Below, piece after piece: positions 8,649-34,489 of a stretch of DNA of 64,000 nt. Position numbers and translations under genes: made by a program. The first letter of the stretch is position 1. Each line of letters opens with the position of its first letter. The notes beneath the pieces were generated by a model. It was given only the letters and a program-made list of their open reading frames with translations. It had not been told where the DNA came from and did no database searches. The stretch spans positions 2,692 through 66,691 of the forward strand of contig JBFYLW010000003.1 in the NCBI GenBank assembly GCA_041305185.1, in the 5' to 3' direction. The stretch comes from Nanobdellota archaeon. Its GTDB lineage: Archaea > Nanobdellota > Nanobdellia > Woesearchaeales > ARS49.

Positions 8649-9958
8649 GCTTGGAGCAGGGTTTGGATGAATTGAAAATTTATGGGAGGCCACGGATAAG
8701 CTGGTGGCTGAAGAAGCAAAAGAAGAAAATATTAGGTACAGCATTTTCAGTTGCTGCGCTTGCTTGTTCTCTTTACGGCGGGTTGGTGTTTTATCAGCAT
8801 CAGAAAGAAAAAGCAGCAGAGAAGATGTACCAGGCTAACAATATTGAAGAGATTAAGCAGAGTAATAAAATAATGACTGAAGAGCTTGAGGTATATAAGC
8901 GGAAATATGATGGTCCTGAAGGATTGGATAACTTGATTTTTACCCAGCAAAGAAAACTCGCCGAGTTTGAGAAACGATTGCAAACTGAAGTGTTTCCAAT
9001 AAGTTTTAAAGAGGTGCATAGAAAAAGGTTGGCAAATTACCCATTGAAAATATTATTAATTGATGATTCCTTTTATATGCCTTCTGACAAAAACCTTCTT
9101 GGATTCGATATTAAAGAAATATATAAAGATCTTCCAACTGCTCTTTTATTTACGTATGGAATTATCAATTTTAATGAATCGACTGTGGTTTACCATGAAA
9201 ATGAAATGAATAAATTAAAAACAGTCGTGATAGCGCCAGGATTAGGAAAAAAAATATTGCATGAAACTGAATCTTGTAGCGGTTATAGAATATCTTTAGA
9301 ATGTTACCATAACAGAATTGCTTTAAAATATGAAAATTTAAATGGGAAAGATATTCGTCGAACTTTTTTTATTGAAGGAGATCAGATCCGTGCGCAAGAT
9401 GGTGATGCGGATTTTTCTACATATAAAGGCATGAGATATGATATTTCGTGGGGTAATCTGCATAAGAAATCAGAAAATGAGGAACTTTGGACAATAGGGA
9501 GCAATATTAATGAATATTTTCTTGTCAATAATCAGGCATTTATTCGTTCTGATAATACTTTATTTGCACATAACATATTCACTGGAAAGGAGATGTGGCG
9601 TTTTTCTTATAACACCAAAACCAAAGGCACACCGTTATGCGAGGATGTCCGGGTATATGTCGGCGCAGAAGATAATCATCTTTATTGTTTAGATTCAAAC
9701 ACTGGTAATTTGGTTTGGAAGTCTCAGACGAATGACAAGGTTAGGGAGCGTCCTTCTGTGGATAATGGTCGTGTTTATTTTGGTTCGCTGGACTCTCATA
9801 TTTACGTTTTGGACTCGAGAAATGGCAGGCGTTTGTGGATGCATGAGCTTGACAGCCCGATTAGTTCTCCTCCGATGGTTAAGGATGATATGCTTTACTT
9901 GGCTACGACTAATGGTAATTTGTATGCTTTTAAGAAGAAGAAGAGTGATAAGAAATGA
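8645..9958 (+). CDS. membrane-anchored PQQ-like beta-propeller repeat protein
   Basis: N-terminal anchor module 'MSLEQGLDELKIYGRPRISWWLKK'+TM; C-terminal repeats 'HLYCLDSNTGNLVWK', 'HIYVLDSRNGRRLWM', 'GNLYAF' typical of PQQ/BamB-like propellers. Confidence 0.6.
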   Translation: MSLEQGLDELKIYGRPRISWWLKKQKKKILGTAFSVAALACSLYGGLVFYQHQKEKAAEKMYQANNIEEIKQSNKIMTEELEVYKRKYDGPEGLDNLIFTQQRKLAEFEKRLQTEVFPISFKEVHRKRLANYPLKILLIDDSFYMPSDKNLLGFDIKEIYKDLPTALLFTYGIINFNESTVVYHENEMNKLKTVVIAPGLGKKILHETESCSGYRISLECYHNRIALKYENLNGKDIRRTFFIEGDQIRAQDGDADFSTYKGMRYDISWGNLHKKSENEELWTIGSNINEYFLVNNQAFIRSDNTLFAHNIFTGKEMWRFSYNTKTKGTPLCEDVRVYVGAEDNHLYCLDSNTGNLVWKSQTNDKVRERPSVDNGRVYFGSLDSHIYVLDSRNGRRLWMHELDSPISSPPMVKDDMLYLATTNGNLYAFKKKKSDKK

Positions 9959-19136: not shown

Positions 19137-19343
19137 TTATTGTTTTTGTGCTTCGAGAATGACTTTTTTGTTCAGGTGCTTGCTTGCGTTCAGGACTTCA
19201 ACACCTAATAATTTGCCTTTATTGTCAAAATCTACGTTTATGTCTTCTTTCACAGTTATTGTTTTTTTGGCATCTCCATCTTTTATAGGGTATTCCAAAT
19301 AGAGATATGCTGCGTCCACTTCCTTGTCATATTCTATTTTCAT
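19137..19343 (-). CDS. DUF2283-family small protein (putative antitoxin-like partner)
   Basis: 'MKIEYDKEVDAAYLYLEYPIKDG...' matches DUF2283 consensus (MKIxYDxExDxLYI). Confidence 0.6.
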   Translation of the reverse strand: MKIEYDKEVDAAYLYLEYPIKDGDAKKTITVKEDINVDFDNKGKLLGVEVLNASKHLNKKVILEAQKQ

Positions 19344-19347
19344 GGTT

Positions 19348-19557
19348 TTACATTACGGTTATTATCTTTATATAACTTTTGATTGGTATTATTTTCACTA
19401 TTATTGTTCTGTTGTTAATTTCTCCGATGGCTTCTTGCGTTCCATCGAATGATTTGATTATTTGATTGGGGTATTTTAGCACTTGCTGTACTTCAAGTTC
19501 TGTTATTGCTCTTTGTTTCATCCTCCTTTTTGCGTGTTCTGAATAAATTATTTGCAC
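19348..19557 (-). CDS. DUF4258-family small protein (putative toxin-like partner)
   Basis: 'MQIIYSEHAKRRMKQRAITELEV' matches DUF4258 N-terminal consensus; 4-nt spacing to the DUF2283 gene. Confidence 0.6.
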   Translation of the reverse strand: MQIIYSEHAKRRMKQRAITELEVQQVLKYPNQIIKSFDGTQEAIGEINNRTIIVKIIPIKSYIKIITVM

Positions 19558-19662
19558 TTGATTGTATTGGCTGAGCTTGTTAATGGGTCTGTTGAATGAA
19601 ATCCTGTAAACTTTTCAGTTCATTCAGTAAATAATTCAGAAAAATGATATTTTTATGGAAAT

Positions 19663-20841: not shown

Positions 20842-21321
20842 CTAGGTTCCGTATGTGCATCTGAGTAATGCGATTTCAAGGTATCCTTGGCTGAAGCCGA
20901 GTGCTCCTGCTGCTTGTGCTATTGTTTCTGGGTGCGAATTTATTGCAGTTCGTAGTACATTATGACACCTGCTTCCGAGAAGATAGTTGCAGTCTTGTAT
21001 GTAATCTGCTATTCCTTTCATGTTTCCAAAGGCTCTTCCAAGCAGTGCAGATGCTGTGACTTCTCCTTTTGCGAATGCCGCCTGCATTTGCGTGTTTCTT
21101 TCTCTTAATGCAGAATCGCTTGATACTGCGAGTTCAGCAGTTTCGCAAATTCTTTCAAGTATTCCTCTTGAAGCCATTGATTCCAGTGCTGCAAGGTTTC
21201 CAAGCGCGTCTACTGCCTGTTCTGACGAGAAATTCATCAGATGCATTACGTGCGATACAAATGCAGGGTCTGCTTTTACAAGAGATCCTCCTGATCTTAA
21301 TGGCGATGTCATTTCATACAT
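20842..21321 (-). CDS. hypothetical protein
   Basis: 159-aa ORF, 9-nt spacing to next gene. Confidence 0.3.
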   Translation of the reverse strand: MYEMTSPLRSGGSLVKADPAFVSHVMHLMNFSSEQAVDALGNLAALESMASRGILERICETAELAVSSDSALRERNTQMQAAFAKGEVTASALLGRAFGNMKGIADYIQDCNYLLGSRCHNVLRTAINSHPETIAQAAGALGFSQGYLEIALLRCTYGT

Positions 21322-21330
21322 TTTGTTACC

Positions 21331-21798
21331 TCATCTGTTTTGTCCTATGATGTATTTTTGTGCTGCGGTGTACATTGCTGTTTCGATTGTTCTTCCGAAC
21401 TCTCTTACAAATGATTGTGGGTTTGGTATCGAGGTTCCATATCTTCTTCTGTGTTCTGATGCGAAATTTTTTCCTGCCTCGTTGACTGCATCTATTATTG
21501 TGCCTGACATGCTTGATGGAAGCACGTCGCTTAGGAAATCCGCTACCCCTTGTATTGTTCCTTTTGCTTTTTCAAGATAAAGTGTTTTGTGTACGTTTAG
21601 TTTTTCATATTCTGCTCTTTGTTCTTTGACTTCTTCAAGTCCGTCTTTTTTGAATAGTATTTTGCACCATCCCCTTATGCCTGTGGATTCTCTTTGCAGC
21701 CTGTCTGTTTCATCGACATGTTCTGCAACTTCTCCTACTTCTGAGTAGAATTTGTTCATTGCTTGAATTAATATTGTGTCGAATTCTTCAGGTGTCAT
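21331..21798 (-). CDS. hypothetical protein, tandem paralog of 21800..22261
   Basis: Shared motifs 'FDxILxxxMNxFYS', 'DExxRLQRESTGxRGWxKILFKxDGxEEVxxQRAEx', 'KAKGxxxGxxDF', 'RxYGxSxPxPxxFV'. Confidence 0.4.
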   Translation of the reverse strand: MTPEEFDTILIQAMNKFYSEVGEVAEHVDETDRLQRESTGIRGWCKILFKKDGLEEVKEQRAEYEKLNVHKTLYLEKAKGTIQGVADFLSDVLPSSMSGTIIDAVNEAGKNFASEHRRRYGTSIPNPQSFVREFGRTIETAMYTAAQKYIIGQNR

Positions 21799-21799
21799 T

Positions 21800-22261
21800 T
21801 TATCCTCCAGTGAGATATTTTTGTGATGCTTTATACATTTCTGTTTCTATTGCTTTGCCCAGTCCGCTTACGAATGCTTTTGGATCAGGGACTGAAAATC
21901 CATATTTTCTTTCATGGTTTGATATGTATTTGTTTACGGCTTTTGATGCTGCTTCTAATACTGCGTCTGCCATGTCTGGGGGCAAGGAGTCTCTTATGAA
22001 GTCTTTTATTCCGTATACTGCTCCTTTTGCTTTTCCTAAAAAGTATTCCATCCTTGTGGTGATTTGTTCAAGTTCTGCTCGTTGCTGGGTGACTTCTTCC
22101 ATACCGTCGTTCTTGAATAGGATTTTCACCCAGCCTCTAAGTCCTGTTGATTCTCTTTGCAGTCTGTTTGCCTCATCTATATCTTCTGATGCGTTGTATA
22201 GGTCTGAGTAGAAATTATTCATTGATGTCAGAAGGATTTCGTCAAAATTTTCAAGTGCCAT
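21800..22261 (-). CDS. hypothetical protein, tandem paralog of 21331..21798
   Basis: See paralog; 1-nt spacing. Confidence 0.4.
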   Translation of the reverse strand: MALENFDEILLTSMNNFYSDLYNASEDIDEANRLQRESTGLRGWVKILFKNDGMEEVTQQRAELEQITTRMEYFLGKAKGAVYGIKDFIRDSLPPDMADAVLEAASKAVNKYISNHERKYGFSVPDPKAFVSGLGKAIETEMYKASQKYLTGG

Positions 22262-22365: not shown

Positions 22366-23016
22366 ATGGAAATCAATGTTTTGAAAAGCCCGGCTTTGCA
22401 GATAATGCTGGGTGTTTTGAGGAACAGGAAGACTGTTACGACTGATTTCAGGCGTAATTTGAGGTATGCTGGTTATTTGATGACTCATGAGATTCTCATG
22501 CACGAGTTCACTATGACCTCTTCTCCTATTATGACTCCTATTGCTAAATCAAAGTGTGCTGTTTTGAAAGAGAAGATTTTGCAGGTTATTGTTATGCGTG
22601 CAGGTGAGCCTTTTGCTGACGGCGGTGCAAGGCTTTTGGATGAGATTAATTCTGTGAGGGAGATTGGTGTTGTTGATGCTCACCGTGTTGAGAAGCCTGG
22701 TTTTAAGTTTGAGGTTGTTATGGGTTCTTTTAAGGTTCCTAAGTTTGACAAAAACACTATTGTGGTTGTTTATGACCCTATGCTTGCTACTGCTTCCACG
22801 CTTACAGAAATTCTGAAGCGTCTGAAAAAGCATGGTACGCCTAAGAAATTCATTATTTGTTCTATTATTGCTGCAGATTATGGCTTGAAGAGCCTGCAGA
22901 AGCATTTTCCTGAGCTGGTTGTTTACACTTTGGGTGTTGATAAGGAGCTTAACAGCAAGGGGTATATCGTGCCTGGTCTTGGCGATTGCGGCGACAGGGC
23001 TTTTGGGACTTATTAG
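22366..23016 (+). CDS. upp: uracil phosphoribosyltransferase
   Basis: PRPP-binding 'VVVYDPMLATASTL' and C-terminal UPRT signature 'GYIVPGLGDCGDRAFGT'. Confidence 0.8.
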   Translation: MEINVLKSPALQIMLGVLRNRKTVTTDFRRNLRYAGYLMTHEILMHEFTMTSSPIMTPIAKSKCAVLKEKILQVIVMRAGEPFADGGARLLDEINSVREIGVVDAHRVEKPGFKFEVVMGSFKVPKFDKNTIVVVYDPMLATASTLTEILKRLKKHGTPKKFIICSIIAADYGLKSLQKHFPELVVYTLGVDKELNSKGYIVPGLGDCGDRAFGTY

Positions 23017-23462
23017 AGTTCTACAAATTCTGTTTTTATCTGTTTGAGCGAGGCGAGTGATGTGATTTTGGCTATTCCTGGTCTTGAAATTACTGTTTTT
23101 AGCAGGTTGTAGTATTCGTCCTGGTCTTTGACTCTGACTTTTATTATCATTTCATAGTCTCCTGTGCAGACGTCTACGCTTTCTATCTGTGGGTGTTTTG
23201 CCAGGAGTTTTCCTATTCTTTCCGGGTCTCCGTACTCGTCTGGGGTTAAACTTATCAACACAAATGTGCAGAATCCTTCGTTTATTTTTTTGTAGTCAAA
23301 GACTGCCTTGTATGTTTTTATGGCTCCTTCCCGTTCCAGTTTTTTTATGTTGTAGTGTATTGTTGTTGAGGGCTCTTTGAGCTTTTTTGCTATCTTTGCT
23401 ATCTGCGGTGTGCAGTTGTTTGTTTTGAGCAATTCTATCAGTTTTGGGGCTATGTCTTTCAT
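23013..23462 (-). CDS. Lrp/AsnC-family transcriptional regulator
   Basis: HTH 'IAKIAKKLKEPSTTIHYNIKKLEREGAIKTY' + RAM domain; convergent 4-nt overlap with upp. Confidence 0.75.
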   Translation of the reverse strand: MKDIAPKLIELLKTNNCTPQIAKIAKKLKEPSTTIHYNIKKLEREGAIKTYKAVFDYKKINEGFCTFVLISLTPDEYGDPERIGKLLAKHPQIESVDVCTGDYEMIIKVRVKDQDEYYNLLKTVISRPGIAKITSLASLKQIKTEFVEL

Positions 23463-23674
23463 ATTATTGTATAGTATTCAACTATATATAAAGATTTCGA
23501 TTAAAAGTTGAATTTTATTCAACAATGAATGAGATGGTCGTCTTATTTTCTTCTGGGTGGCAGGTAAGGAAACGGCTGAATACGCATATAAGTATAGACG
23601 TATAAGCTAGTATATATATCATATGTAGAAAGTATATATTTATTCACGACAATTTTGCTTCTGAGGCGACTAAA
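23463..23674. promoter_or_regulatory. AT-rich divergent promoter region with palindrome and AGTATA repeats
   Basis: Inverted repeat gttgaat-ttt-attcaac; four AGTATA/TATATA boxes (agtatagacgtataagctagtatatatatcatatgtagaaagtatatattta) upstream of the 23675 operon and of the divergent Lrp gene. Confidence 0.4.
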
Positions 23675-24088
23675 ATGACTATTGACGACCTGATTACAGA
23701 GACTAAGAGTACAAAGGATAGGAAGATTGTGGTAAAGAAAATATTCAAGGAATACATGTCTGGAAACTGCAACCCGCTTGAGGCAGCGAACGCTATACAG
23801 GCAGTAATTGGAAGGGTTTCAGGTTACGTTTACAAAGGAACGCCGGGAAGTTTGAGCATTTCAAACTGTGTTGACAGGTACAGTGTGCCTGTAAATGCCT
23901 CTAACAACCGCGCTTACGAGAAGGTTGAGGAATTCAAGGCAGCTTTGAGGATTGTTGCGAGAGGGAATGGAAGAACTCAGATAGAGGACCATAATGGAAA
24001 GGGCTGTTCTACAAAGGACTACGCTGAGAAATTCTGGCAGTATGCTTTGGCTAGAGAGCAGGACGTGAGGGCGAAATATGCAGCTTGA
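23675..24088 (+). CDS. hypothetical protein (first gene of GHKL operon)
   Basis: 137 aa; no motif. Confidence 0.35.
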   Translation: MTIDDLITETKSTKDRKIVVKKIFKEYMSGNCNPLEAANAIQAVIGRVSGYVYKGTPGSLSISNCVDRYSVPVNASNNRAYEKVEEFKAALRIVARGNGRTQIEDHNGKGCSTKDYAEKFWQYALAREQDVRAKYAA

Positions 24089-24137
24089 GATGAGAACATG
24101 ATTGATTGTTTAAGAGAATTTTTGAGGGTGAGAAAAA

Positions 24138-26063
24138 ATGACTAATCTTAGTCAGATCGTGAATGAGAACAAGAAGTTGTTTCATCTTCTATTGAGTGAT
24201 TTGCATAATTTGGAAGATAAGAATAATTCAGGTATTGTTGCTCAGTATGAGTCTGGTTTGGACCAGATTTTGGATTCTGCAAAAGTTGAATTGCGCATGA
24301 TTGATTTTGCTGAACTGCGCGTTCAGGATTTGAGCGCTAGTTTGCTGGGCTTGATTGCTGAGAATAAGTCTGCCAGGGATAAAACTGCACATGATAATGT
24401 TCGTGAAATTGATAGACTTGTTTTTGATAAATATTTTCCCCAGTTTTCCGGTTTGGCAGAGAAATATTTAGCTGAATTGAGTAATCTGAAGAAGTCAGTT
24501 CTTGATAAGGAAGGTATGCGAAAGGCGAATGATTTCCTGCAGAGGCATCGCAAGGAGTACAAGAAGGCTTTCAATTCTAAAAATCGTGATGAATTGCAGG
24601 AATATGTTGTTCAAAAATATGAGGAGTACCGGCGTTCGGTTCAGAATAATGAGGGTGTCCAGCGCAGGTTGAAGAATTTGGATATGCTTATAGTTCCTGT
24701 AAGGCTTCATTACCGTTCTGATGGGGTTGTTGTTGTGACAGATCCTGTTCTGAAAAACCCTTCTGAAGAGCTTATGTCGAATTATGTCGGTTCTGATATC
24801 AGGGATGTTGTGATTGAGCGATTGAAGAGTGCTGGTTTTGTTCCTCATTTCATTGAGACTTGGGAAGGTGAAGGGTCTAAAGAGAGTAAACTGGCTGTTG
24901 AAAGTAAACCAGGTTTAGAATCAAAGCTGCCTGAACCGAAGCCTGAAGCCGTAAAATCTGAAGTTCCAAAGCCTGAAAGCGATTTCAAGTACAATGTTAA
25001 GGATTTGGCGCGGGAGCTTGGTGTTCCAAGTTCCAAGATTGATAATTATTTGCGGAAAAAGCATCCTGAATTGTTCCAGCAGAGCAAACTTTTTCCTGAG
25101 GGTCGTAAGAATGTTTTCACTCGTTTGTATTCGCAGAATGTTCTTGACCACTTGAAGGATTATATTGCGCCTAAACAGCGGGACTTCAGGGGGGTTTTGG
25201 ATGAAAAAGCTGTTCAGATTACCAATCTGCTTGAAAAGGGTAAATCAGATGCGGATATCGCAAAACAGTTTGGTGTAAGTCCTGTAACCATTAGTCGTTT
25301 CAAGGAAAGTATTGGTTTGTGGAGTTCGCGTTATTTGAAAGCTAATTATCCTGCTCTTGATGATATTGCTTTGAAAACCATGCCGGGTGTCGCTTCTTAC
25401 CCGAAGGACAGCATTAGGGAGCAGATGATTCTGAAGTCAATTGATGGTTTGAATGGCGAGATTAATTATTTGGGTTTGGAAGGCGCTCATTTTGGTAGTT
25501 ACATTCTTTTGAATGATTTCTTCAAGGTTAATCCTTCAAAAAGTTTGGTTGCTGAGAACAATCCGCTTGATTACAGGATTATGCGTTCTGTTGTTGATAA
25601 CTGGAAGGTTTTCAAGCCTGGTAAACTGCATTCTAAGGATGGCAGTATTTTCAATGGCTTGAATGTTTACGAGGGTAATCTGGGCGAGGCTGTTCGTGAT
25701 TTCTCAAAGAGCAATGAATGCAAATGGAACCTGATTAATCTTGATTATACTGGTTGTATCAATGATGAGAAAGTAAAGACTCTTGAGTTGTTGTTTGATG
25801 GAAAATTAATCGCGGATAATGGTTTGATGTTTGTTACTTTGAATGATGATGAGCAGATGCGCGAGCGCGTCAGGACTGGCGCTGGCTTGAATGGAAAGGC
25901 TCCTTCACAGGGTTATGGTACTCCTGACCAGATGGCTGTTGTTGATGCCTGTTTGAAGCGTTTCTCTGAGCGTAATGGTTATTCTGTTGAGAGGATAAAT
26001 GATGCAAGGTATTCTTGCAAGGAGAGGCAGATGCTGGCTCTTGCTTACAGGGTGAAAAAATGA
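24138..26063 (+). CDS. large multidomain protein: N-terminal coiled-coil, K/P/E-rich linker, HTH region, C-terminal possible Rossmann/MTase-like domain
   Basis: HTH-like 'SDADIAKQFGVSPVTISRFKESIG'; low-complexity linker 'KPGLESKLPEPKPEAVKSEVPKPES'; Gly-rich 'INYLGLEGAHFGSY' then 'NLINLDYTG' (weak MTase-like). Confidence 0.4.
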   Translation: MTNLSQIVNENKKLFHLLLSDLHNLEDKNNSGIVAQYESGLDQILDSAKVELRMIDFAELRVQDLSASLLGLIAENKSARDKTAHDNVREIDRLVFDKYFPQFSGLAEKYLAELSNLKKSVLDKEGMRKANDFLQRHRKEYKKAFNSKNRDELQEYVVQKYEEYRRSVQNNEGVQRRLKNLDMLIVPVRLHYRSDGVVVVTDPVLKNPSEELMSNYVGSDIRDVVIERLKSAGFVPHFIETWEGEGSKESKLAVESKPGLESKLPEPKPEAVKSEVPKPESDFKYNVKDLARELGVPSSKIDNYLRKKHPELFQQSKLFPEGRKNVFTRLYSQNVLDHLKDYIAPKQRDFRGVLDEKAVQITNLLEKGKSDADIAKQFGVSPVTISRFKESIGLWSSRYLKANYPALDDIALKTMPGVASYPKDSIREQMILKSIDGLNGEINYLGLEGAHFGSYILLNDFFKVNPSKSLVAENNPLDYRIMRSVVDNWKVFKPGKLHSKDGSIFNGLNVYEGNLGEAVRDFSKSNECKWNLINLDYTGCINDEKVKTLELLFDGKLIADNGLMFVTLNDDEQMRERVRTGAGLNGKAPSQGYGTPDQMAVVDACLKRFSERNGYSVERINDARYSCKERQMLALAYRVKK

Positions 26064-26524
26064 ATGATTGGCAGTTAGAGTTCAAGGCTTGGTATGATAA
26101 GCATTACGGCGGTAAAATGCAGAGCGAGTTTGTCAGGGACAGCGGTCTTGCAAGGAGCACTTGGATTGCTTATTTGAAAACTCCTGTTGATTTGTCTCGT
26201 TTGTCAAAAAAAGCCAAGAGTAGTTTGTACAAGCTTACCGGGCTTGATTGTTTCAAGGTTGAAGGTGTTGAAAAGGTTGTTGAGAATAAAGACGTAAAGC
26301 AGCCTGACCTTGTTAAGCAGACTGTTTCTGTTTTTTATGAGCTTGCTCAGAAGCTTGAGGGTTTTAAAGCTTCTCCTGAATTGCGCGAGCAGTTGATTGC
26401 GAAACTGCCTAAGATGGATGTTGGCAGGCTTACTGCTTTGCTTCACGCTGTTTACAAGCCTAAGGATGATTTTGATCAGTGGTTGATGATTTCTGGATAT
26501 GTTTACCAGGGAGAGAGAAAATGA
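26060..26524 (+). CDS. hypothetical protein (ATGA-coupled)
   Basis: Start ATG 26060 overlaps upstream TGA; 154 aa. Confidence 0.35.
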   Translation: MNDWQLEFKAWYDKHYGGKMQSEFVRDSGLARSTWIAYLKTPVDLSRLSKKAKSSLYKLTGLDCFKVEGVEKVVENKDVKQPDLVKQTVSVFYELAQKLEGFKASPELREQLIAKLPKMDVGRLTALLHAVYKPKDDFDQWLMISGYVYQGERK

Positions 26525-28065
26525 AAATTCCATATGAGTTGAAAAATACTGATTTTATTATTGGTCAGATTTCGCAGTTGTACGCTTCTGACCCTGTTGG
26601 AGCTTTGAAGGAATATGTTACTAATGCTATTGATGCTTTTAGTGATGCTTCTTTGAAGGGCAGGAAGAAGGATGCTCGTATTGGGGTTGTTGTTAACAAG
26701 GAAGAGGGCACTATTGTTGTTCAGGATAATGCTCTTGGTATGAGTTATGATTTCTTGTGCTCGATTCCGAGCTCAATTGGTGAGAGTTCAAGGCGTGGCA
26801 TTAAGGAAATGCGTGGTGAGAAGGCTTTTGGTATGCTTGCTTATTGCGGTTTTGGCGATAAGGCTAGTGTTTTGACAAGGACTGGCGCTGATAATGGGAA
26901 TTACAGCAGTTTGCAGATGAAGCGTGGAGAGCCTGAAGCTGACGCTGGCCGTTTGGAAGCTCGTGTTGTTGACCGTACTGAGGGTTTTGCCAGTGGCACT
27001 CGTGTTACGATTACCGGCGTTCCTAAGAAGACTATTGAAGATTATTTTACTCCTCAGAAGCTTAAGCGCGCTCTTGGCGAGACTTATGAGCCTATTATTC
27101 GTGCCGATGAGGTCGGTATTTATGTTGGCTGGCACGGCAGGAATGAGCGTTTGGAAAAAGTTGAGCCTCCTGAGCATAAGGGCGAGAATATTCTGGCTGA
27201 TTCAGAGGAAACCACTAAAAAGGTTATCCGTCTTGCGAACGGTTCTCTTGTTACCGGCAGGCTTGATGTTAATTTGTGGCTGAATCCTGAGGGAGTGAAT
27301 GATAAGGTTGGTCTTTACTGCAAGGGTGTTCGGGCTATTGAGTCTGTTGGCAGGCTGAAAGAGCTTGAGGATTTGTGGAGCAGCGGCAAGCTTTCAGGTT
27401 ATGTTAATGCTGATTTTGTTTCTTTGACGCCTGACCGTGATGGTCTTGTTCGTGATGCTGGTTTTGATTGTCTTGTGGAGTTGTTGAAGGCTTACGAGCC
27501 GGTTTTGAATGAGCAGATTAAGAAGGCTGTTGACCAGACTGTGAAGAAGAAGGCTGATAGCCTTCTTGAGCAGATTGCTGAAAAGCTTGGCGATGTTTAT
27601 GCTAGAAAGCCTAATCCTTTCACAAAAGGGACTGGTGGATCTTTGAAGGAGCCCAGGAAGCCTGGTGTTCTTCGTGATAAGCCCAGAAAGCATAATTGTC
27701 CTTTTGCGCTTGACATTCTTGATTTTGATGCGGGTGATGCTCATAAGCGTTACAAGCTTGAGGAGGATGACTGGATTTTGATTAATTCTGGTCATAATGA
27801 TTTCAAGCAGCTTGCTTTTGGCCGTGGCGTGAAGGATAAGGATGCTTTGCAGTATTTTGCTGCGGTTATTGCTAATGCTGCTGCGTTTTCAGATTATGTT
27901 GACGGCAGGAAGGCTTTGGCAAAGGCTTCCAAGGAGGAGTATGATTCGAAAGCGCAGATGACTGCTGAATCCCAGCAGGCTATTGCTGAGCGTTCTATTG
28001 AGCTGAAGCTTGATTTGCTGGATACTTTTGGCATTATCAGGAAGAGAAAGAAGACGGAGGGATGA
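26521..28065 (+). CDS. GHKL-superfamily ATPase (HATPase_c_3 / MORC- or MutL-like Bergerat fold) with long C-terminal region
   Basis: N-box 'LKEYVTNAIDA' (ExxxNAxDA), G1 box 'VVQDNALGMS' (DxGxG), G2 'GEKAFGMLAYCGFG'; ATGA overlap both ends. Confidence 0.7.
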   Translation: MKIPYELKNTDFIIGQISQLYASDPVGALKEYVTNAIDAFSDASLKGRKKDARIGVVVNKEEGTIVVQDNALGMSYDFLCSIPSSIGESSRRGIKEMRGEKAFGMLAYCGFGDKASVLTRTGADNGNYSSLQMKRGEPEADAGRLEARVVDRTEGFASGTRVTITGVPKKTIEDYFTPQKLKRALGETYEPIIRADEVGIYVGWHGRNERLEKVEPPEHKGENILADSEETTKKVIRLANGSLVTGRLDVNLWLNPEGVNDKVGLYCKGVRAIESVGRLKELEDLWSSGKLSGYVNADFVSLTPDRDGLVRDAGFDCLVELLKAYEPVLNEQIKKAVDQTVKKKADSLLEQIAEKLGDVYARKPNPFTKGTGGSLKEPRKPGVLRDKPRKHNCPFALDILDFDAGDAHKRYKLEEDDWILINSGHNDFKQLAFGRGVKDKDALQYFAAVIANAAAFSDYVDGRKALAKASKEEYDSKAQMTAESQQAIAERSIELKLDLLDTFGIIRKRKKTEG

Positions 28066-28397
28066 AAATGTCATTGGAAAGAGCATACAATAACTGCAGA
28101 ATCTGTTATTTCGAATTAAAAGGAACCGGCTTTCAGAGTAGAGTAGTAAAACCAAGTTTTGGAGAAATACTCGTAAGTAGCAATCATGGTGAAAGGGCGA
28201 TGAACGAGGCGATGAAAGCACTTGAGGAAGAGATTCCTTCAGAGTTTCGTTCTGGTTGTGTAACAATGGAAAGAAGAAGGCCTGCTTATGAAGCCTTGAA
28301 AGTTTGTGCTAAATGTGATGGTAAAAGTCCGGCCATTGCAGAGTTTCTTGAAAAAGCATTGACGGACATTTTTGGAAAGAAGGAGGAACAAAAATGA
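28062..28397 (+). CDS. small zinc-ribbon-like protein
   Basis: Two CxxC pairs ('CRIC' near N-terminus, 'CAKC' near C-terminus); ATGA-coupled. Confidence 0.4.
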   Translation: MKMSLERAYNNCRICYFELKGTGFQSRVVKPSFGEILVSSNHGERAMNEAMKALEEEIPSEFRSGCVTMERRRPAYEALKVCAKCDGKSPAIAEFLEKALTDIFGKKEEQK

Positions 28398-29563
28398 GCT
28401 ATGGAATGAGTTTCGGGTTTAGTCAGGAGCAGCGTTTGGATCATAAGATGAGCTTGCGTCAGGAGCACAGTGTTGATTATCCGAAAGTTATTGAGAGTAT
28501 TCGCAGCCATTTTAGCAGTACTGAGGATTTTCCTACTGATGTTTCGCGTTTGAAGCAATTGTTGAGGACGATTCCTCAGCGTCAGAATGGCAGGCTTGCT
28601 TATGTTATTGGTGGTGGTTGGGCTGTTGAGGTTTTGACTGGCAAAGCGCGTGAGCACGGCAACATTAACGTTCTTGTTGTTGATCCTAAAAGGACTACTT
28701 TGGAAAGCAACCGTTGTTTGGACTATCTTGGCGTTCAGTATTTGGATAAGGCTTTGGCAGATGCTTTGGTAAAGAGGGACGTGATTAAGGGGAATTGGAC
28801 TCGTGGTGAGTGTGATGTTTACGTTCCCAGCCACGAGTTTATGGTTGGCACGAAATTGCTGCCGAGAAATGTTGATGAAGGCAATCGTGACAAGGATATC
28901 GCTGACCTTGTTGAACTGCTTATCGTGCACGCTCCTGATGTTAAGAAGCTGGCTCGTGTGCTGGATTCTTTGCCTTATGTTAATGATGGCGATACTGTTG
29001 CGCGGATTGGTTACAGGATTTCTGGCTCTTTGAAGCCGGGCATTTCTTTGACAGATGATGGTTTTAGGGTGAACAAGCGTCCTAAAAGAAGCGTTGAGAG
29101 AAAGGCAGCGTACGCTCTTCGTTTGCTGAATGATGTTTTGCGTGAACAGCTTTGTGTTTATGATGAAAAGTGGAAAATGGCACAAGCAGGAAGAGTTCTG
29201 GAGGCACAACTTTCGATGAATGAATATGATGGTCTGAAAAAATATCACGAAAGGGAGGGTTCTGCTGAAAATTTCTTTAAGTGGCTCTCGGATAATCGTG
29301 AAAAGCTGGTTAATCCGCACAATAAGATTTACTACCCGAGGCACCCCGACAAAAAACCCATTTTTATGAATAAGACAGATTATGTTTCTGCTTTGGCAGA
29401 CGGGATTATTGACCGGGACGCTTTTGATGTTATGATGGAAGATGCTGAAAAGCATCCGCCTTATTCAGCTTACTCTGTCAGGTCTGTTTCAGAGGGCGGG
29501 AGTTATGCCTTGCTTGTCTGGAATCCTAAGGGTAAGCTGATTTACGAGAATTGGAAGAAGTAA
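28394..29563 (+). CDS. nucleotidyltransferase-fold protein, AbiEii-like (possibly catalytically degenerate)
   Basis: 'VIGGGWAVEVLTGKAREHGNINVLVV' resembles AbiEii/minimal NTase 'GGTAL...R.S.DIDl' but with NIN in place of DxD; later 'NRDKDIADLVELL' resembles AbiEii C-terminal motif. Confidence 0.35.
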   Translation: MSYGMSFGFSQEQRLDHKMSLRQEHSVDYPKVIESIRSHFSSTEDFPTDVSRLKQLLRTIPQRQNGRLAYVIGGGWAVEVLTGKAREHGNINVLVVDPKRTTLESNRCLDYLGVQYLDKALADALVKRDVIKGNWTRGECDVYVPSHEFMVGTKLLPRNVDEGNRDKDIADLVELLIVHAPDVKKLARVLDSLPYVNDGDTVARIGYRISGSLKPGISLTDDGFRVNKRPKRSVERKAAYALRLLNDVLREQLCVYDEKWKMAQAGRVLEAQLSMNEYDGLKKYHEREGSAENFFKWLSDNREKLVNPHNKIYYPRHPDKKPIFMNKTDYVSALADGIIDRDAFDVMMEDAEKHPPYSAYSVRSVSEGGSYALLVWNPKGKLIYENWKK

Positions 29564-29602: not shown

Positions 29603-30550
29603 ATGAAGGATATGAAGCGTAAAGTCATAAAACTCGGCAGTTCTACCTTAGTTACCTCTTTGCCTTCCAAGTGGACTAATATGCTTGGTGTTAAGGCTGG
29701 TGATGAGCTTGAGGTTACTGAGCGCCAGAAAGACCTCGTTATCAGCACTCAGAAGAAGTCTTCTAAGTTTCTTAAGACTCTTGATTTGAAAAAACTGAAC
29801 ACCAAGCTTTCTTTTGGTTATGTTGAGGCTGCGTATGTTTCTGGTGTTGATGAGCTTGAGCTTTTGCATGGTCCTTTTATCGTTCACTACAAGACCGGTC
29901 AGAAATTGAAAACTTCTGAGGTTCTTCAGAGCATGCTTTCTCCTTTGATTGGTTTTCAGATTATTGAGCAGTCTGAGGACAGGACTGTTGTGAAGGATAT
30001 TGGTCAGGTTTCTGATGAGGAGATGGATAATGTTCTCAGAAGAATGTTTTTGCTTATCAAGTCTATGGGTGAGGAGTGTTTTGAGGCTGTTAAGTCTAAA
30101 AATAAGCAGACTCTTGGGAGTATGCCTGTGCGTTATGATAATATTTACAAGCTTTACATTTATTATTTGAGGATGCTGAACAAGCGTGGTTACAGGGATT
30201 TCAGCAAGACTCCTGTGATGTACGAGTTTATTTCCAAGTTCAAGATGATTATCAGTGTTTACAGGTTTATTGGTGTTGAGGCTGTTTTCCTGAAAAAGCC
30301 TTACAGTCAGAAGGCTTTGAAGATTTTCGAACACGTTTTGAAGTCTTTTGAGAACCTATACAAGGTTTTTTACCAGTTTAATGATGAGAATTGTTTGCAG
30401 ATTACTCTTGACAGGAATGTTTCTATTGATATGATGAATGATTTGAAGAAGAAGTGTTCTGTTGAGGATGCTTTGCTTATCGGCAGGCTTTCAGTCATTA
30501 CAATAACGATTTATCACGCTTTGAAGTGCCGTTTTAACCTTGAGATTTAG
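29603..30550 (+). CDS. AbrB/SpoVT-domain regulator with PhoU-like C-terminal region (archaeal phosphate-uptake-regulator-like)
   Basis: N-terminal swapped-hairpin motif 'VIKLGSSTLVTSLPSKWTNMLGVKAGDELEV'; ~250 aa helical C-terminal part. Confidence 0.5.
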   Translation: MKDMKRKVIKLGSSTLVTSLPSKWTNMLGVKAGDELEVTERQKDLVISTQKKSSKFLKTLDLKKLNTKLSFGYVEAAYVSGVDELELLHGPFIVHYKTGQKLKTSEVLQSMLSPLIGFQIIEQSEDRTVVKDIGQVSDEEMDNVLRRMFLLIKSMGEECFEAVKSKNKQTLGSMPVRYDNIYKLYIYYLRMLNKRGYRDFSKTPVMYEFISKFKMIISVYRFIGVEAVFLKKPYSQKALKIFEHVLKSFENLYKVFYQFNDENCLQITLDRNVSIDMMNDLKKKCSVEDALLIGRLSVITITIYHALKCRFNLEI

Positions 30551-31427
30551 CGTTTATTTTTTCCAGTATCTTTTTGATTTCGCTGAAATTGTCTTTTTTG
30601 CCTGTGTTTGGTATGATGTGTAGGTTTTCTTCTGGTATTGCTGCTCTTATTGCTGGCAGTTCTTTTTCGTCGTAGTTGAATAGTATGATATGAGGTATGC
30701 CGTATTCGTACGCTCCTACTACTTCGTCATAATCGTGTCCTATGAATGCTACTTCTTCTTTTTGGTATCCGTTTTTTTGGAGCACTGTATCAAAGAATTT
30801 TGGTGCTGGTTTTTTGCATTTTACATCTGCATAAGATACTACTTCCTTGACCCCTCTTGTTATTCCCATTCTTGGGAGTGATTCGTATAGTTTTTTCCCT
30901 GGTTTTATTGCGTCTGTGACTATGATAAAATCTACCAGTCCGTCAAGGCTTTCTATTGTTTCTTTGACTCCTGGGAAGAGTTCTCTTTTTCTTTTTGAGT
31001 TTTCAGCGATTATTTCTTCGAATTGTACAAAGTTTTCAAGACCGTATTCCTGAAACAATGCCCTGTATGCGTCTTTTGCCGTGTCAGTGCCTGCATTCGC
31101 CTGGTATAAAACCCCTGGGTTGCGCGTCTGGATTTTGTATTTTTCCATAATTTTCAGCATTTCTTTTTCAGCTTTATCGCCTGCTAATTTTTTGTCAATG
31201 CTGGTTAATTTCAGGTAATCCTGTATTTTTTTGAAGTCTTCCTGGGTTTCCACTGGCAGGTTTTTATACGAAAAATTTATGACGTATTCTTTCATTCTTT
31301 CAAGGTCTTTTGCTATTTTGCCCTTGTTTATGCCTGTTTCTTTGTGTATGTAATTTACACCATAATTCCTGTCTTCATTGTCGTCAAACAGTATGTTTCC
31401 TCCGTCCGATAGTATTGCTTTTATCAT
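30534..31427 (-). CDS. HAD-superfamily hydrolase-like protein (non-canonical motif I)
   Basis: Motif II 'FIIVTDA', motif III 'KCKKPAPKFF', motif IV 'VAFIGHDYDEVVGAYEYG'; motif I 'AILSDGGNIL' deviates from DxDxT. Confidence 0.45.
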   Translation of the reverse strand: MIKAILSDGGNILFDDNEDRNYGVNYIHKETGINKGKIAKDLERMKEYVINFSYKNLPVETQEDFKKIQDYLKLTSIDKKLAGDKAEKEMLKIMEKYKIQTRNPGVLYQANAGTDTAKDAYRALFQEYGLENFVQFEEIIAENSKRKRELFPGVKETIESLDGLVDFIIVTDAIKPGKKLYESLPRMGITRGVKEVVSYADVKCKKPAPKFFDTVLQKNGYQKEEVAFIGHDYDEVVGAYEYGIPHIILFNYDEKELPAIRAAIPEENLHIIPNTGKKDNFSEIKKILEKINAKSQG

Positions 31428-34400
31428 TTTTCGTATTTTTCTGCGAATTCTGTTATTGCATCTGATATTCTTTTTATTTTCTGGTTGAATTCATTCATGT
31501 TGATGCTTGATACGCCTGTGGCTTCCATTATCTGGACTGGTTCTCTGGTTCTTTCAAGATATTTTTCGTTTATTTCTTGTATTTTTTCAATATCTTTGCA
31601 GTCTTTGAGCTCTTCACTTCTTTCCAGCATGATTCTGTCGTATTGTATGTTTGCTTCAAAGTAAATTGCTGCCTTTTTTATTGTCGGCAAAAATTCTCTG
31701 ATTGCTGTTGTTTCTATCGGGTATTCCTGCTGGAACAGCATATTTTTGGAGTATTTTTCAAAGGTTTGGTATGTGAAATTCAGCAATTCGTATCTTTCTT
31801 GTATTTGTCCTGCTTGATTTTTTATTGATTTATCAAGTGCTTTATCAAGTGACTCGCTTAATTGAAGAGAGAGATCTTCGATTTCTCCAACGGTTGATTC
31901 TAACAGGCCTATTGTTTCTTCCATTACTTTTAAGTTTTGATTTTCGCGTATCAAAAAGTTCTTTCCTTTTCTTTCTGTGTCATAACTGCGCAGCGTGCTG
32001 AGTGCGCTTATGGCGCGCTGGCTGAGGTTTTTTCTTGCGAAGTAGTGCCATGCTGTTTCTGCAAGGGTTCCAGTGTCGCTTAGGTAGTATTTGTACTTGA
32101 AGAAATTTCTTGAGTCTGTGCTTATTACTTCTTTTTTTGTTCCGAACACTGAATCTAAATCTGCGAGTGAGTCTGCGCATATCATTGCTTTTTCTACTTC
32201 ATCTTCTCCGTTTGTCATGGCTGCTATTGCTGTTGCCAAATCTTTGTGCTTGTCAAGCATGCTTGCTGCATAGCTTGCAAGGTATCCGACAAAGAATTCA
32301 TCTTGTTTAAGCAGTTTTGTGTCGTGTCCTAGTGAGCTTACGTAATTGCGCAGGTTATCATGCAATTTGCTTTTGAACAGGCTTGTGAATATTAGTGTGT
32401 CGAGTGTTCCTGCTGGTAGTGCTTTTATTTTTTCATATTTTACCACTAAACTATTGTTGTGTGTTTCAATTGCCTGTTGGAGCAGCATTGTGGTTATTGG
32501 ATCTGCGCTGTATGTTTTGAAGAAGCTTAGCAAATCTTCTGGCGTTTGTATTTTTGCCTTTGCCATGCTTTTTAATATTTCGTCTTTTTTTCCGAAAAAT
32601 TCTATTTCAAATTGTCTTGCTTCTTCGAGGTGTATGATTGTTTGGGGTGAGAAAATTCCTGCTCTTAGATTGTCTTGCAGGCGTTTCATGTTTTCCTCTA
32701 TCATTATCTGAAGAGCTGGGTGTGCGCAGTTTGTGCCTAGAAGTCTTATGTACTCTTTTGTTATTTTCTCTCTTTGTTCTAATGGAAGTATGTTTTCTGT
32801 AAGCAGGTTTTTGTGCGGGTTTTCTATTTTTGCCAATTGTTCATCTATGCTTTTGTATATTCCGTCTCTTCTCTGTTCGTAATTTTCAATTATTTTTTCT
32901 GCTTCTTTGCTGTCAGGGTCTTCTGAATTCCATGACATTCGATAGGTGTCTCCTTTTGTTTTCACTATTTGTTCTATCTCTTCTGGTCTGCTGATGAGTA
33001 CTTCTTTGAGTTCATCGTGGTTGAGATTCTTTTCTTTTGCTAATATGTGGTCGGTTGCCTGCCATTTATTTATTAATGGAAATCCGTAGTTAGTGGTTAG
33101 ATAGCCAAGTAATGCAGTTCCGAAAGTGACTGCTGTTAATGCTGCTATGCCTATTCTTTCCCATCTTTTCCGTACTCTTTTGTTTGCTGCCTGGTTGAAT
33201 AGGAATGCTCTTTCGTTTTGTTCTTCTTCTTTGTTTTCGTCATTGGCTCTTAGTTCTCCTATGAGCAGGTCCGGGTGTACTGTTTTTTCATAGTTTGCTC
33301 TTGTTTCCTTGTCCCACCTGTTGAGTCTGTTTTGTTTTCCGAATTCTTCCATTCTTTCTTCAAGTTTTGTTTCGCCCATTTCGTTTAATGTGTCAAGGGC
33401 TCTTGTGTAGACAAGGTCTTTCAGATTGTTGTAGAAGTCTGATAAGCGTGTATCTTTGCAGCTTTTTGCTCCTGCTGCTGCTATTGCGGTGAATCTTAAG
33501 TTTTCAAGTGCGTCTGTTATCAGGTACTTTCTTGTGAATCCTTCAAGGGAGTCTGTGTATTTTTGTGTGTCTTCTCCTTGTGAATGGTTCTGTATTGCTT
33601 CGTGCAGTTTTTTGACTGAAACATCTCTTGCGTCTTTTGCGTTTACGCAGTTGTGCTCGTAGACTGACATGTTTAGTCTGTATAGGTCTTTTTGGATTGC
33701 TCCTATTGATGCATCATCCCAGTCTATGATTTTTGGCGTGGATGGTGCTGATTTGATTTTTACGACGTTTTTTCTGTGGAGGTCATTGTGGACTATGCTT
33801 TTCGGCTGTGTGTCAAGTTCTGCTCCTAGTGCTGCGAACCTTTCTACAAGATCTTCAAATCCTTCTTTGTGCTTCCAGGCATCTTCTGTTTCGTCTTTGT
33901 TTTTTGTTTTTGCGTCAAAGAATTTTTGTTTGAAATAATTGGTGTAATTATCTTCTTTCAAAAGTGCTTTTATTTTTTCGTCTGGTTTTATTGTGGAGTA
34001 TCCTCCCATTAAATCTATTATTCCTGCTTTTTGGGGTATTGCCATAGCTCCTTTTTCGTCTAGTGCGACGTCTAGCAGTTCTGTGCATCTGAATGCTTCG
34101 TCTTTTGCTATTCTTTCGAATATGTAGCCTGCTGGTGCTCCTGAGAATTGGTGCGCTTTCAGGAAGTCTTCGACTGCTGAGCCTTTTTCGAGCTTGTCTG
34201 AGTTTTTGTTCAGGAATTTTCCGAATGCGTTCAGCGTGTAGCCGTTATCGAATCTGGCTGTGAGTATCATGCTGAGCCCGTCGCTTACGTTCGCGTTGTA
34301 TTCTTCTTCTATTTTGAATCTGTCATTTTCTATAAGTGTGCTTAGTTCTTTTGCCTTTTCTAGGGGGACCTCTGTAGGGCTTGTTGTTCGTACTTTCTGC

Positions 34401-34489
34401 AATAGTCCTTTTTTTAGAAAATCGTCTATAAACTTATTGTATCTTCTCCTTCCAAGGTTCTTCCTTAATGAAACTATCTTCTGCATCAT
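31424..34489 (-). CDS. 1021-aa protein with N-terminal aminoglycoside-phosphotransferase/protein-kinase-like domain, one TM helix and long helical C-terminal region
   Basis: Catalytic loop 'IVHNDLHRKNVV' (HxDxxxxN) and 'IIDWDDASIG' (DFG-equivalent); TM 'IGIAALTAVTFGTALLGYL'. Confidence 0.5.
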   Translation of the reverse strand: MMQKIVSLRKNLGRRRYNKFIDDFLKKGLLQKVRTTSPTEVPLEKAKELSTLIENDRFKIEEEYNANVSDGLSMILTARFDNGYTLNAFGKFLNKNSDKLEKGSAVEDFLKAHQFSGAPAGYIFERIAKDEAFRCTELLDVALDEKGAMAIPQKAGIIDLMGGYSTIKPDEKIKALLKEDNYTNYFKQKFFDAKTKNKDETEDAWKHKEGFEDLVERFAALGAELDTQPKSIVHNDLHRKNVVKIKSAPSTPKIIDWDDASIGAIQKDLYRLNMSVYEHNCVNAKDARDVSVKKLHEAIQNHSQGEDTQKYTDSLEGFTRKYLITDALENLRFTAIAAAGAKSCKDTRLSDFYNNLKDLVYTRALDTLNEMGETKLEERMEEFGKQNRLNRWDKETRANYEKTVHPDLLIGELRANDENKEEEQNERAFLFNQAANKRVRKRWERIGIAALTAVTFGTALLGYLTTNYGFPLINKWQATDHILAKEKNLNHDELKEVLISRPEEIEQIVKTKGDTYRMSWNSEDPDSKEAEKIIENYEQRRDGIYKSIDEQLAKIENPHKNLLTENILPLEQREKITKEYIRLLGTNCAHPALQIMIEENMKRLQDNLRAGIFSPQTIIHLEEARQFEIEFFGKKDEILKSMAKAKIQTPEDLLSFFKTYSADPITTMLLQQAIETHNNSLVVKYEKIKALPAGTLDTLIFTSLFKSKLHDNLRNYVSSLGHDTKLLKQDEFFVGYLASYAASMLDKHKDLATAIAAMTNGEDEVEKAMICADSLADLDSVFGTKKEVISTDSRNFFKYKYYLSDTGTLAETAWHYFARKNLSQRAISALSTLRSYDTERKGKNFLIRENQNLKVMEETIGLLESTVGEIEDLSLQLSESLDKALDKSIKNQAGQIQERYELLNFTYQTFEKYSKNMLFQQEYPIETTAIREFLPTIKKAAIYFEANIQYDRIMLERSEELKDCKDIEKIQEINEKYLERTREPVQIMEATGVSSINMNEFNQKIKRISDAITEFAEKYEK

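Follow-up and report, generated by a model that had tools for sequence, protein, structure and literature searches.

Within a 64,000-nt stretch of contig JBFYLW010000003.1 from a Nanobdellota archaeon (hereafter the window, meaning the whole stretch of DNA analysed), we find a six-gene operon, encoded on the forward strand at positions 23675–29563, that is built around a conserved triad of genes. The triad consists of a 641-aa protein (g641; genes are named here by the length of their products) with two helix-turn-helix (HTH) motifs and a C-terminal methyltransferase (MTase)-fold domain, referred to below as the MT domain; a 154-aa HTH-like protein (g154); and an ATPase of the GHKL superfamily. 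We tentatively read the operon as a novel methylation-linked, nuclease-free and defence-like accessory module of Woesearchaeota and related DPANN archaea, and we favour this reading because the module is patchily distributed, modular in its gene content, variable between strains and mosaic in its divergence. An earlier interpretation of this DNA, made from the sequence and its open reading frames (ORFs) alone and referred to here as the original prediction, had proposed an ATGA-coupled run of five genes around a MORC-like GHKL ATPase, forming a candidate defence or restriction-like system. The operon itself, the GHKL protein, the MTase-like protein and a nucleotidyltransferase (NTase) fold have all stood; of the other attributions, AbiEii-like is wrong, restriction-like is not supported and MORC-type is not established.

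The six genes are a genuine, tightly coupled operon (Table 1). All six ORFs are in frame with one terminal stop each, four of the junctions are ATGA overlaps (at 26060, 26521, 28062 and 28394), exactly as first proposed, and each downstream start is preceded at a distance of 5–10 nt by a Shine-Dalgarno-like motif (GGGTGA, GGGAG, GGAGG and AGGAGG). The ATGA overlaps alone are not special, because they are frequent across the window, where at least five other gene pairs share them (for example at 9955, 44516, 50485, 31424 and 58677). What places the cluster above chance is that no fewer than nine diverged lineages keep its genes in the same order. The 137-aa ORF (g137) and the AT-rich, repeat-bearing region that had been described ahead of the five-gene run are also present. 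This upstream region, a putative promoter judging by its sequence, has a TATA-like AAAGTATATATTTATTC approximately 30–45 nt before the first ATG of the operon and contains two copies of AGTATATAT and a TTGAAT..ATTCAA palindrome, the repeats being short and weak.

Related loci, designated by L numbers, were gathered using the MT domain and the GHKL protein as anchors and were mapped with local hidden Markov models, with a metagenome scan adding a further 23 loci. In a set of 5.8 billion clustered proteins, only four were word-sharing relatives of the GHKL protein, and the contigs of these and of the g641 relatives show the same gene order. An MT-domain protein, a g154-like protein and a GHKL protein occur together in at least nine lineages, and wherever a GHKL gene is present, the gene immediately before it is a g154 homologue. 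Across these loci, identity of the GHKL protein to that of the window ranges from ~90% in the window clade, through 64–74% (L011/L007), 51% (L001/L022), 48% (L003), 36% (L008-10), 34% (L015) and 31% (L035/36/38), down to 25% (L039) and 21% (L023). Those triad carriers that have an organism name are Woesearchaeota. The co-occurrence and synteny on which the idea of a module depends are therefore seen well beyond the window.

The C-terminal domain of g641, originally described as possibly MTase-like, is supported as a methyltransferase at the level of its modelled fold and key residues. A high-confidence AlphaFold2 (AF2) model consists of a seven-stranded Rossmann-like sheet with the β6–β7 hairpin, in which E473 stands at the end of β2, the canonical position for contact with the ribose of S-adenosylmethionine, and D536 at the end of β4, the position of motif IV, within the sequence NLDYxG. 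Both residues are invariant in 41 diverse sequences. Several of the best neighbours of the domain in the PDB are nucleic-acid MTases, including RsmD-like proteins, Trm1, Trm14 and HemK2. Two HTH motifs precede the domain, as the original description of an HTH protein suggested, and these are the only Pfam matches in g641 (aa 284–307 and 357–390). The first is also matched by the 60-aa HTH protein mad1 of PADLOC (aa 282–340, E 2.9e-5), while the second is joined directly to the MTase fold, is conserved family-wide and provides the three helices that open the AF2 model. No Pfam or NCBIfam match to N6_Mtase, N6_N4_Mtase, DNA_methylase or MethyltransfD12 was obtained for g641 or for 72 representatives of its family. 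The sole Pfam link of the family is to PF20553, a ‘putative O-methyltransferase’, in one batch result, and two later Pfam scans located no carriers of PF20553 among the relatives. A Toprim reading of the GLEG motif of g641 fails, as its Glu is not conserved.

The MT family is small. Of 1.84 billion cluster representatives, an exhaustive HMMER search with the MT domain retrieved 78 at E<1e-10 and up to 132 overall; a word-indexed homologue search with the MT profile returned three proteins. In nearly all of its cluster representatives the MT domain is located at the C-terminus, and the few relatives with a named source are Woesearchaeota or Nanoarchaeota. When the MTase model (window 25212–26060) was compared with the viral structures of BFVD, the best neighbours were giant-virus proteins, ahead of ordinary viral methyltransferases, and the top five include two annotated chromodomain proteins (from Hyperionvirus and Tetraselmis virus 1; E 3e-9 to 6e-7).

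The GHKL protein carries an intact ATP site, as had been read from its N, G1 and G2 boxes and its HATPase_c_3 character. The N box residues E31, N35 and D38, the G1 residues D69 and G73, the G2 residues G99 and G104, and G159-T160 are all invariant in 12 homologues, as are K262, K268, N422 and H425. A profile of the family run against the PDB matched Hsp90 N-domains (E 9e-11) over aa 18–189 only. Foldseek with the AF2 model, which was built from five sequences, is poor overall (mean predicted local distance difference test score, pLDDT, 53.8) and is reliable at most in the ATP domain, gave Grp94 and Hsp90 N-domains (Grp94 E 5e-10), with the ATPase of SMCHD1 (6mw7) at rank 12. The protein is nevertheless not HtpG or Hsp90, since it scores 28 bits against a cut-off of 455 for NCBIfam HSP90 and 19 against 371 for HtpG, and its PDB profile matches cover only aa 18–189. 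Nor is it a topoisomerase VI-B or MutL protein, as top6b reaches 15 bits against 380.7 and the operon has no Toprim or Spo11 gene. Membership of a MutL, Hsp90 or TopoVI-B housekeeping family, the outcome that would have undone the original prediction, is thus not what these scores (15–28 bits against cut-offs of 371–455 for the HtpG and TopoVI-B models) indicate, and by its sequence the protein is a distinct GHKL subfamily. Its description as MORC-type is not established, because its ATP domain is nearer to Hsp90 and SMCHD1 and an S5 (transducer) domain is unconfirmed; K262 and K268 are invariant, but the region beyond residue 257 is modelled at a pLDDT below 50.

The third member of the triad, g154, yielded no family or PDB match. 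Alignment of its homologues shows an N-domain of ~65 aa that is present in one to three copies, followed by a strongly conserved helical C-terminal region of ~70 aa. Homologues of g137 occupy the same position in L005 (67% identity), L011 (57% identity), L008, L027 and L032. The product of g111 had been called a CxxC...CxxC zinc ribbon, and both Cys pairs are indeed present, but only the closest relative retains them, and beyond this the gene shows hardly any conservation. It is the fastest-diverging gene of the operon, with 36% amino acid identity to L005 compared with 84–91% for its neighbours, and shows no nucleotide similarity to L005 across 28072–28378.

The last gene, g389, has an NTase fold, as predicted, but is not AbiEii-like. 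L003, L005 and L011 conserve its first 200 aa, including the motif AYVxGGGWAVEVLTGKARxHxNINVLV (GGGWAVEVLTGKAREHGNINVLV in the window), which aligns to the lincosamide NTase LinA (PDB 4wh5, E 8e-4). The catalytic DxD has become NxN (DID to NIN), with both Asp residues replaced by Asn in four of four homologues, and scores for the LinA/ANT(2'') families are 15–16 bits against cut-offs of 300–350. As regards AbiEii (DUF1814), PF08843 is not matched, and hhalign against the bona fide AbiEii of L043 gives a probability of 0.1%. From these residue changes, g389 is probably an inactive NTase-fold subunit.

Around the triad the gene content varies. A g137-type first gene (113–137 aa), a family B gene (169–223 aa), a family D gene and an NTase-like gene are each variably present; a family F gene (216–261 aa) may stand between the MT and g154 genes; and there is a small variable Cys protein. 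A receiver-domain (REC) protein (PF00072, 37.9 bits) is encoded in L001, L011 and L015 and is absent from the window, and a pair formed by a MoxR AAA+ ATPase and a vWA protein is found in L001 and L015. In these last two loci (L001 11697–18964; L015 7675–11447) the module runs on into a 306–314-aa orphan, the MoxR-type AAA+ ATPase and the vWA protein, and in L001 these are followed by genes for a REC-like protein, a 2OG-Fe(II) oxygenase and a dCTP deaminase.

This variability extends to the level of strains. Sibling strains (L012-L014; 98.6–99.5% nucleotide identity) possess an extra 192-aa gene of family B between g137 and g641, and family B is also found in the more distant L001, L005, L011 and L024. 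The window has lost this gene through a clean deletion of ~555 bp, so that its operon copy is a deletion variant of the module; the gene list given by the original prediction contained the six ORFs correctly and missed the family B gene of the siblings.

Comparison of the window with L005 shows that all genes are under purifying selection, with ratios of nonsynonymous to synonymous substitution (dN/dS) of 0.16–0.32 (g137 0.20), and that synonymous divergence (dS) is unevenly distributed. In the core it is 0.30 for g641, 0.34 for g154, 0.22 for the GHKL gene and 0.46 for g389, whereas in the flanks it is 1.5 for g137, 0.94 for the AbrB-PhoU gene, 0.85 for the HAD gene and 1.26 for the gene of a 1021-aa protein. 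Core dS (0.22–0.46) is therefore 2–6 times below flank dS (0.85–1.5), with g111 being unalignable. We read this pattern as a sign that the core block was recently exchanged between alleles and that g111 was replaced, and mosaic divergence of this kind is typical of accessory or conflict loci.

The regulators that had been noted on either side of the operon both match their families (Table 1). The linkage of the Lrp/AsnC gene is not conserved, as other lineages do not have it beside the module. As in the window, an AbrB-PhoU homologue adjoins the module in seven further loci (L005, L008, L024, L025, L026, L027 and L032), where, except in L005, it is divergent from the first module gene (six of the seven); it is probably a regulator linked to the module. 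Large proteins resembling APH and methylthioribose kinases lie near the module in the window (31424–34489, reverse strand), L028 (4967–6958) and L032 (12739–15720), and were not counted as part of it because no homology among them is detectable outside the kinase fold.

The window as a whole is chromosomal, encoding a NiFe hydrogenase subunit, radical-SAM and ThiF proteins and uracil phosphoribosyltransferase (UPRTase), and it gave no tRNA or Rfam matches. GC skew is positive nearly throughout positions 1–64000, whatever the coding strand, and AT skew takes strongly negative values over minus-strand genes. Elsewhere in the window, four overlapping large genes at 55228–63308 (reverse strand) encode proteins of 404, 663, 530 and 1150 aa. 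Of these, the 530-aa protein resembles ThiF/E1 (Pfam 6e-30) and has weak PADLOC matches to Cap2-type E1-E2 models (1.8e-11), the other three are without a family, and the cluster possibly represents a separate system of ubiquitin-like or conflict type. Three tandem genes at 20842–22261 (reverse strand), each ~155 aa long and matching no family, include a pair of paralogues with 49% identity. The sibling L012 lacks a 509-bp segment at 19155–19662, a strain-specific indel situated 4 kb before the operon; the two small ORFs located in or at it resemble what we take to be a toxin-antitoxin pair of the DUF2283/DUF4258 type.

Table 1. Coordinates of the operon, its domains and neighbouring features in the window.
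Feature	Position	Strand	Basis
Small ORF in or at the 509-bp indel (68 aa)	19137-19343	-	
Small ORF in or at the 509-bp indel (69 aa)	19348-19557	-	
Lrp/AsnC regulator, divergent neighbour	23013..23462	-	PF01037, 2.7e-12
Divergent intergenic region between lrp and operon (putative promoter)	23463..23674	.	AT-rich
g137, first gene, 137 aa	23675..24088	+	no Pfam, NCBIfam or PADLOC family
Deletion scar, family B gene gone	24086..24109	.	blastn and alignment against L012-L014
g641, 641 aa: helical N-terminal region, two HTH motifs, C-terminal class-I MTase-fold domain	24138..26063	+	
g641 HTH1, aa 281-340, excisionase/MerR-like	24978..25157	+	Pfam HTH_5 at aa 284-307; PADLOC mad1
g641 HTH2, aa 357-395	25206..25322	+	HTH_38, HTH_23, HTH_7 at aa 357-390
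g641 MTase-fold domain, aa 396-641	25323..26060	+	invariant K423, E473, D536, Y625, M632
g154, 154 aa: HTH-like N-domain, C-terminal helical domain	26060..26524	+	alignment of homologues
GHKL ATPase, 514 aa	26521..28065	+	PF13589, 32.2 bits vs cut-off 25, E 1.3e-7
Bergerat ATP-binding fold of GHKL protein, aa 18-189	26572..27087	+	
g111, 111 aa, Cys-pair (CxxC...CxxC) protein	28062..28397	+	
g389, 389 aa: N-terminal LinA/ANT(2'')-type NTase fold, clade-specific C-terminal half	28394..29563	+	
g389 NTase core, aa 53-128, motif GGGWAVEVLTGKAREHGNINVLV	28550..28777	+	PDB profile match 4wh5/4fo1, E 8e-4
AbrB(MazE/SpoVT)-PhoU-like DNA-binding protein	29603..30550	+	PF04014, 3.5e-6

Taken together, three HTH-type modules, an MTase fold and an ATP-competent GHKL domain point to a DNA-directed machine that would couple methylation to ATP-driven clamping or remodelling. 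We propose that g641 would bind DNA through its HTH motifs and would most likely methylate a base, the marking of resident DNA being the most economical reading, and that g154 would act as an HTH adaptor tethering the ATPase to DNA. The GHKL protein could then dimerise on ATP and clamp or remodel DNA or a protein complex, as other GHKL proteins do, with the Cys-pair protein g111 and the disabled NTase-like g389 as possible variable sensor or regulatory subunits and the AbrB-PhoU protein as the presumed control of module transcription. In view of the missing nuclease, such a machine would not cut unmarked DNA but would exclude or silence it, by a BREX- or MORC-like logic. The most explicit form of this idea, in which the HTH-tethered MTase marks resident DNA and an adaptor-loaded ATPase of the Hsp90/MORC/SMCHD1 kind compacts or silences unmarked DNA, we consider unlikely. 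As for the defence-like reading in general, it is favoured by the conflict-type neighbours of distant MT-domain homologues: in a bacterium one such homologue adjoins a serine recombinase and a ParE/RHH toxin-antitoxin pair, and in a different archaeon another adjoins an AbiEii gene.

A number of observations weigh against this reading. PADLOC-DB v2, which includes BREX, DISARM, MADS and Druantia, recognised no system in the operon, in keeping with the statement of the original prediction that the combination was not a familiar one, and gave only weak HTH-level matches (the mad1 match already described and CasR/Csa3 at 1e-3); the GHKL protein, g154 and g111 had no PADLOC match, and neither did family B, MoxR and vWA proteins from related loci. 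No nuclease, helicase or other effector family was matched in the operon or in the scanned neighbour proteins and Pfam tables of related loci, which removes the support for a restriction-like system. Searches for phage and plasmid relatives (tblastn against INPHARED and PLSDB and two IMG/VR scans) returned nothing relevant, the exception being generic GHKL N-domains on rhizobial megaplasmids. The MTase motifs are themselves non-canonical: motif I reads YLGLEGAHFGS, with E448 replaced by P in relatives, and motif IV is NLDYTG in g641 and NLDYxG family-wide. The MT protein occurs without a GHKL gene within 10 kb in at least four loci (L024, L028, L032 and L037). Co-directional gyrB-gyrA genes adjoin g154-GHKL in L035/L038, and in L037 the MT gene is followed by an ATP-dependent DNA ligase. 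Finally, the module keeps the same chromosomal position in related genomes (window, L005, L012-14), between housekeeping flanks (UPRTase, HAD) and in no defence island.

The main rival reading takes the operon for lineage-specific housekeeping machinery for DNA or chromatin, in which the GHKL protein and its adaptor compact, bridge or help to segregate the chromosome and the HTH-MTase provides an epigenetic or positional mark, with no action against foreign DNA. We hold such a chromatin or DNA-management role to be nearly as likely as the defence-like role, that is, a serious possibility though doubtful when taken by itself. It is consistent with the stable position and housekeeping flanks, the gyrase and ligase adjacencies, the missing effector nuclease, the purifying selection on all genes, a GHKL N-domain of SMCHD1/Hsp90 type and the giant-virus chromodomain proteins as best viral structural neighbours of the MTase domain. 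However, 78–132 cluster representatives in 1.84 billion make a family that is small and patchy for a core function, its gene content is highly variable, with MT proteins lacking GHKL in several loci, a gene has been lost at the level of strains, and core dS is mosaic and lies below that of the flanks; moreover, the gyrase and the ligase adjacencies are each confined to one lineage.

A more distant alternative, to which we give a rather low probability, is a regulatory or modification module, whose MTase acts on a protein or small molecule, whose HTH motifs belong to a ligand-responsive transcription factor and whose Hsp90-like GHKL protein remodels a protein client. The single Pfam link to a putative O-methyltransferase, motifs I and IV that are non-canonical for DNA N-MTases, and a GHKL N-domain closest to Hsp90 chaperones would all agree with this, as would the receiver domains and chaperone-like MoxR-vWA pairs of related loci and the neighbouring AbrB-PhoU and Lrp regulators. 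That the operon is the domesticated remnant of an integrated DPANN virus or plasmid, for instance one that served maintenance, partition or anti-host functions and has become chromosomally fixed, is more improbable still: the L001/L015 module does lie within a long same-strand array of orphan genes, its proteins are HTH-rich, one distant homologue stands beside a serine recombinase, an indel upstream carries the presumed toxin-antitoxin pair, and the GHKL protein has a weak PHROG match (phrog_6203, 9e-6), but no integrase, tRNA or terminal repeats were found near the locus, the phage, plasmid and IMG/VR searches gave no matches, GC content is only slightly above that of the flanks, and those flanks are conserved in related genomes.

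Whether defensive or housekeeping, the module brings new protein families, namely the g641 C-domain, g154, g137 and families B and F. The HTH-MTase family, with ~130 cluster representatives and no curated model, is undescribed, and in the literature on Methyltransf_35 and on GHKL proteins in DPANN archaea we found no description of this module. DPANN archaea have tiny genomes, depend on hosts and are exposed to viruses. Their genomes are also reported to be poor in restriction-modification (R-M) and CRISPR systems (PMC12988326), and it is therefore likely that a multi-gene module which is conserved and fills 6 kb of such a genome is important. If it serves defence, as we tentatively suppose, it would provide a new architecture for methylation-based immunity and a prokaryotic test case for the idea that MORC-type ATPases act downstream of methylation marks; a housekeeping role would instead reveal an unknown chromatin or DNA-management system in Nanoarchaeota.

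The individual proteins can be set beside known families. Compared with class-I N-MTases of the RsmD/Trm1/Trm14/HemK type, g641 has an identity of ~12%, NLDYxG in place of DPPY/DPFG, an atypical motif I, and a fusion to HTH motifs and a long helical N-terminus. With LinA/LnuA and ANT(2''), g389 shares the N-terminal strand-helix-strand GGW(A/G)V(E/D)xLTGK..R.H (E 8e-4), but it has NxN for DxD, is 2.4 times longer and is not a resistance gene.

At the level of whole systems, the closest described kind is the R-M-type operon containing a GHKL ATPase, as GHKL ATPases of the MORC and paraMORC families have been linked to methylases in R-M contexts (Iyer, Abhiman & Aravind 2008, PMC2292703). Common to both are a GHKL (HATPase_c_3) protein with intact ATP motifs in an operon with an MTase-fold protein, a sporadic distribution and a modular neighbourhood. 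The neighbourhood of the present module differs, however, in having no superfamily II helicase or endonuclease, its S5 domain is unconfirmed and its ATP domain nearer to Hsp90 and SMCHD1, its methylase is in no recognised DNA-MTase family, its HTH adaptor, g137 and families B and F are without counterparts, and it is so far found mainly in DPANN archaea. A second comparison is offered by bacterial two-component-like Response_reg_2/HEF_HK pairs, in which a paraMORC-type HATPase_c_3 stands beside R-M genes (PMC8011034). These share with our module the linkage of HATPase_c_3 to a methylase, and receiver genes do occur in L001, L011 and L015, but neither family is matched and the receiver is the canonical PF00072, absent from the window. 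With BREX, MADS and similar systems the module shares the logic of an MTase, an ATPase and accessory proteins without a recognisable restriction nuclease, and g641 has its weak HTH-level match to mad1. Membership of MADS can be rejected, as that match is confined to the HTH and no other mad gene is present; homologues of PglX, PglZ, BrxC, BrxL and mad2-8 were not detected by PADLOC, and the ATPase is GHKL and not P-loop, so that the likeness is one of possible working and not of membership.

Lastly, eukaryotic MORC and SMCHD1 are silencing GHKL ATPases, which act downstream of methylation marks by clamping or compacting DNA, and SMCHD1 is among the structural matches of the module's ATPase. 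This likeness is confined to the Bergerat fold, comes from a low-confidence model and does not extend to CW, hinge or coiled-coil signatures, which the module is without. Should a GHKL clamp system of the kind proposed above nevertheless prove to operate in these organisms, it would represent a new class of immunity in DPANN archaea and an archaeal counterpart, and possible evolutionary relative, of eukaryotic MORC/SMCHD1 silencing.

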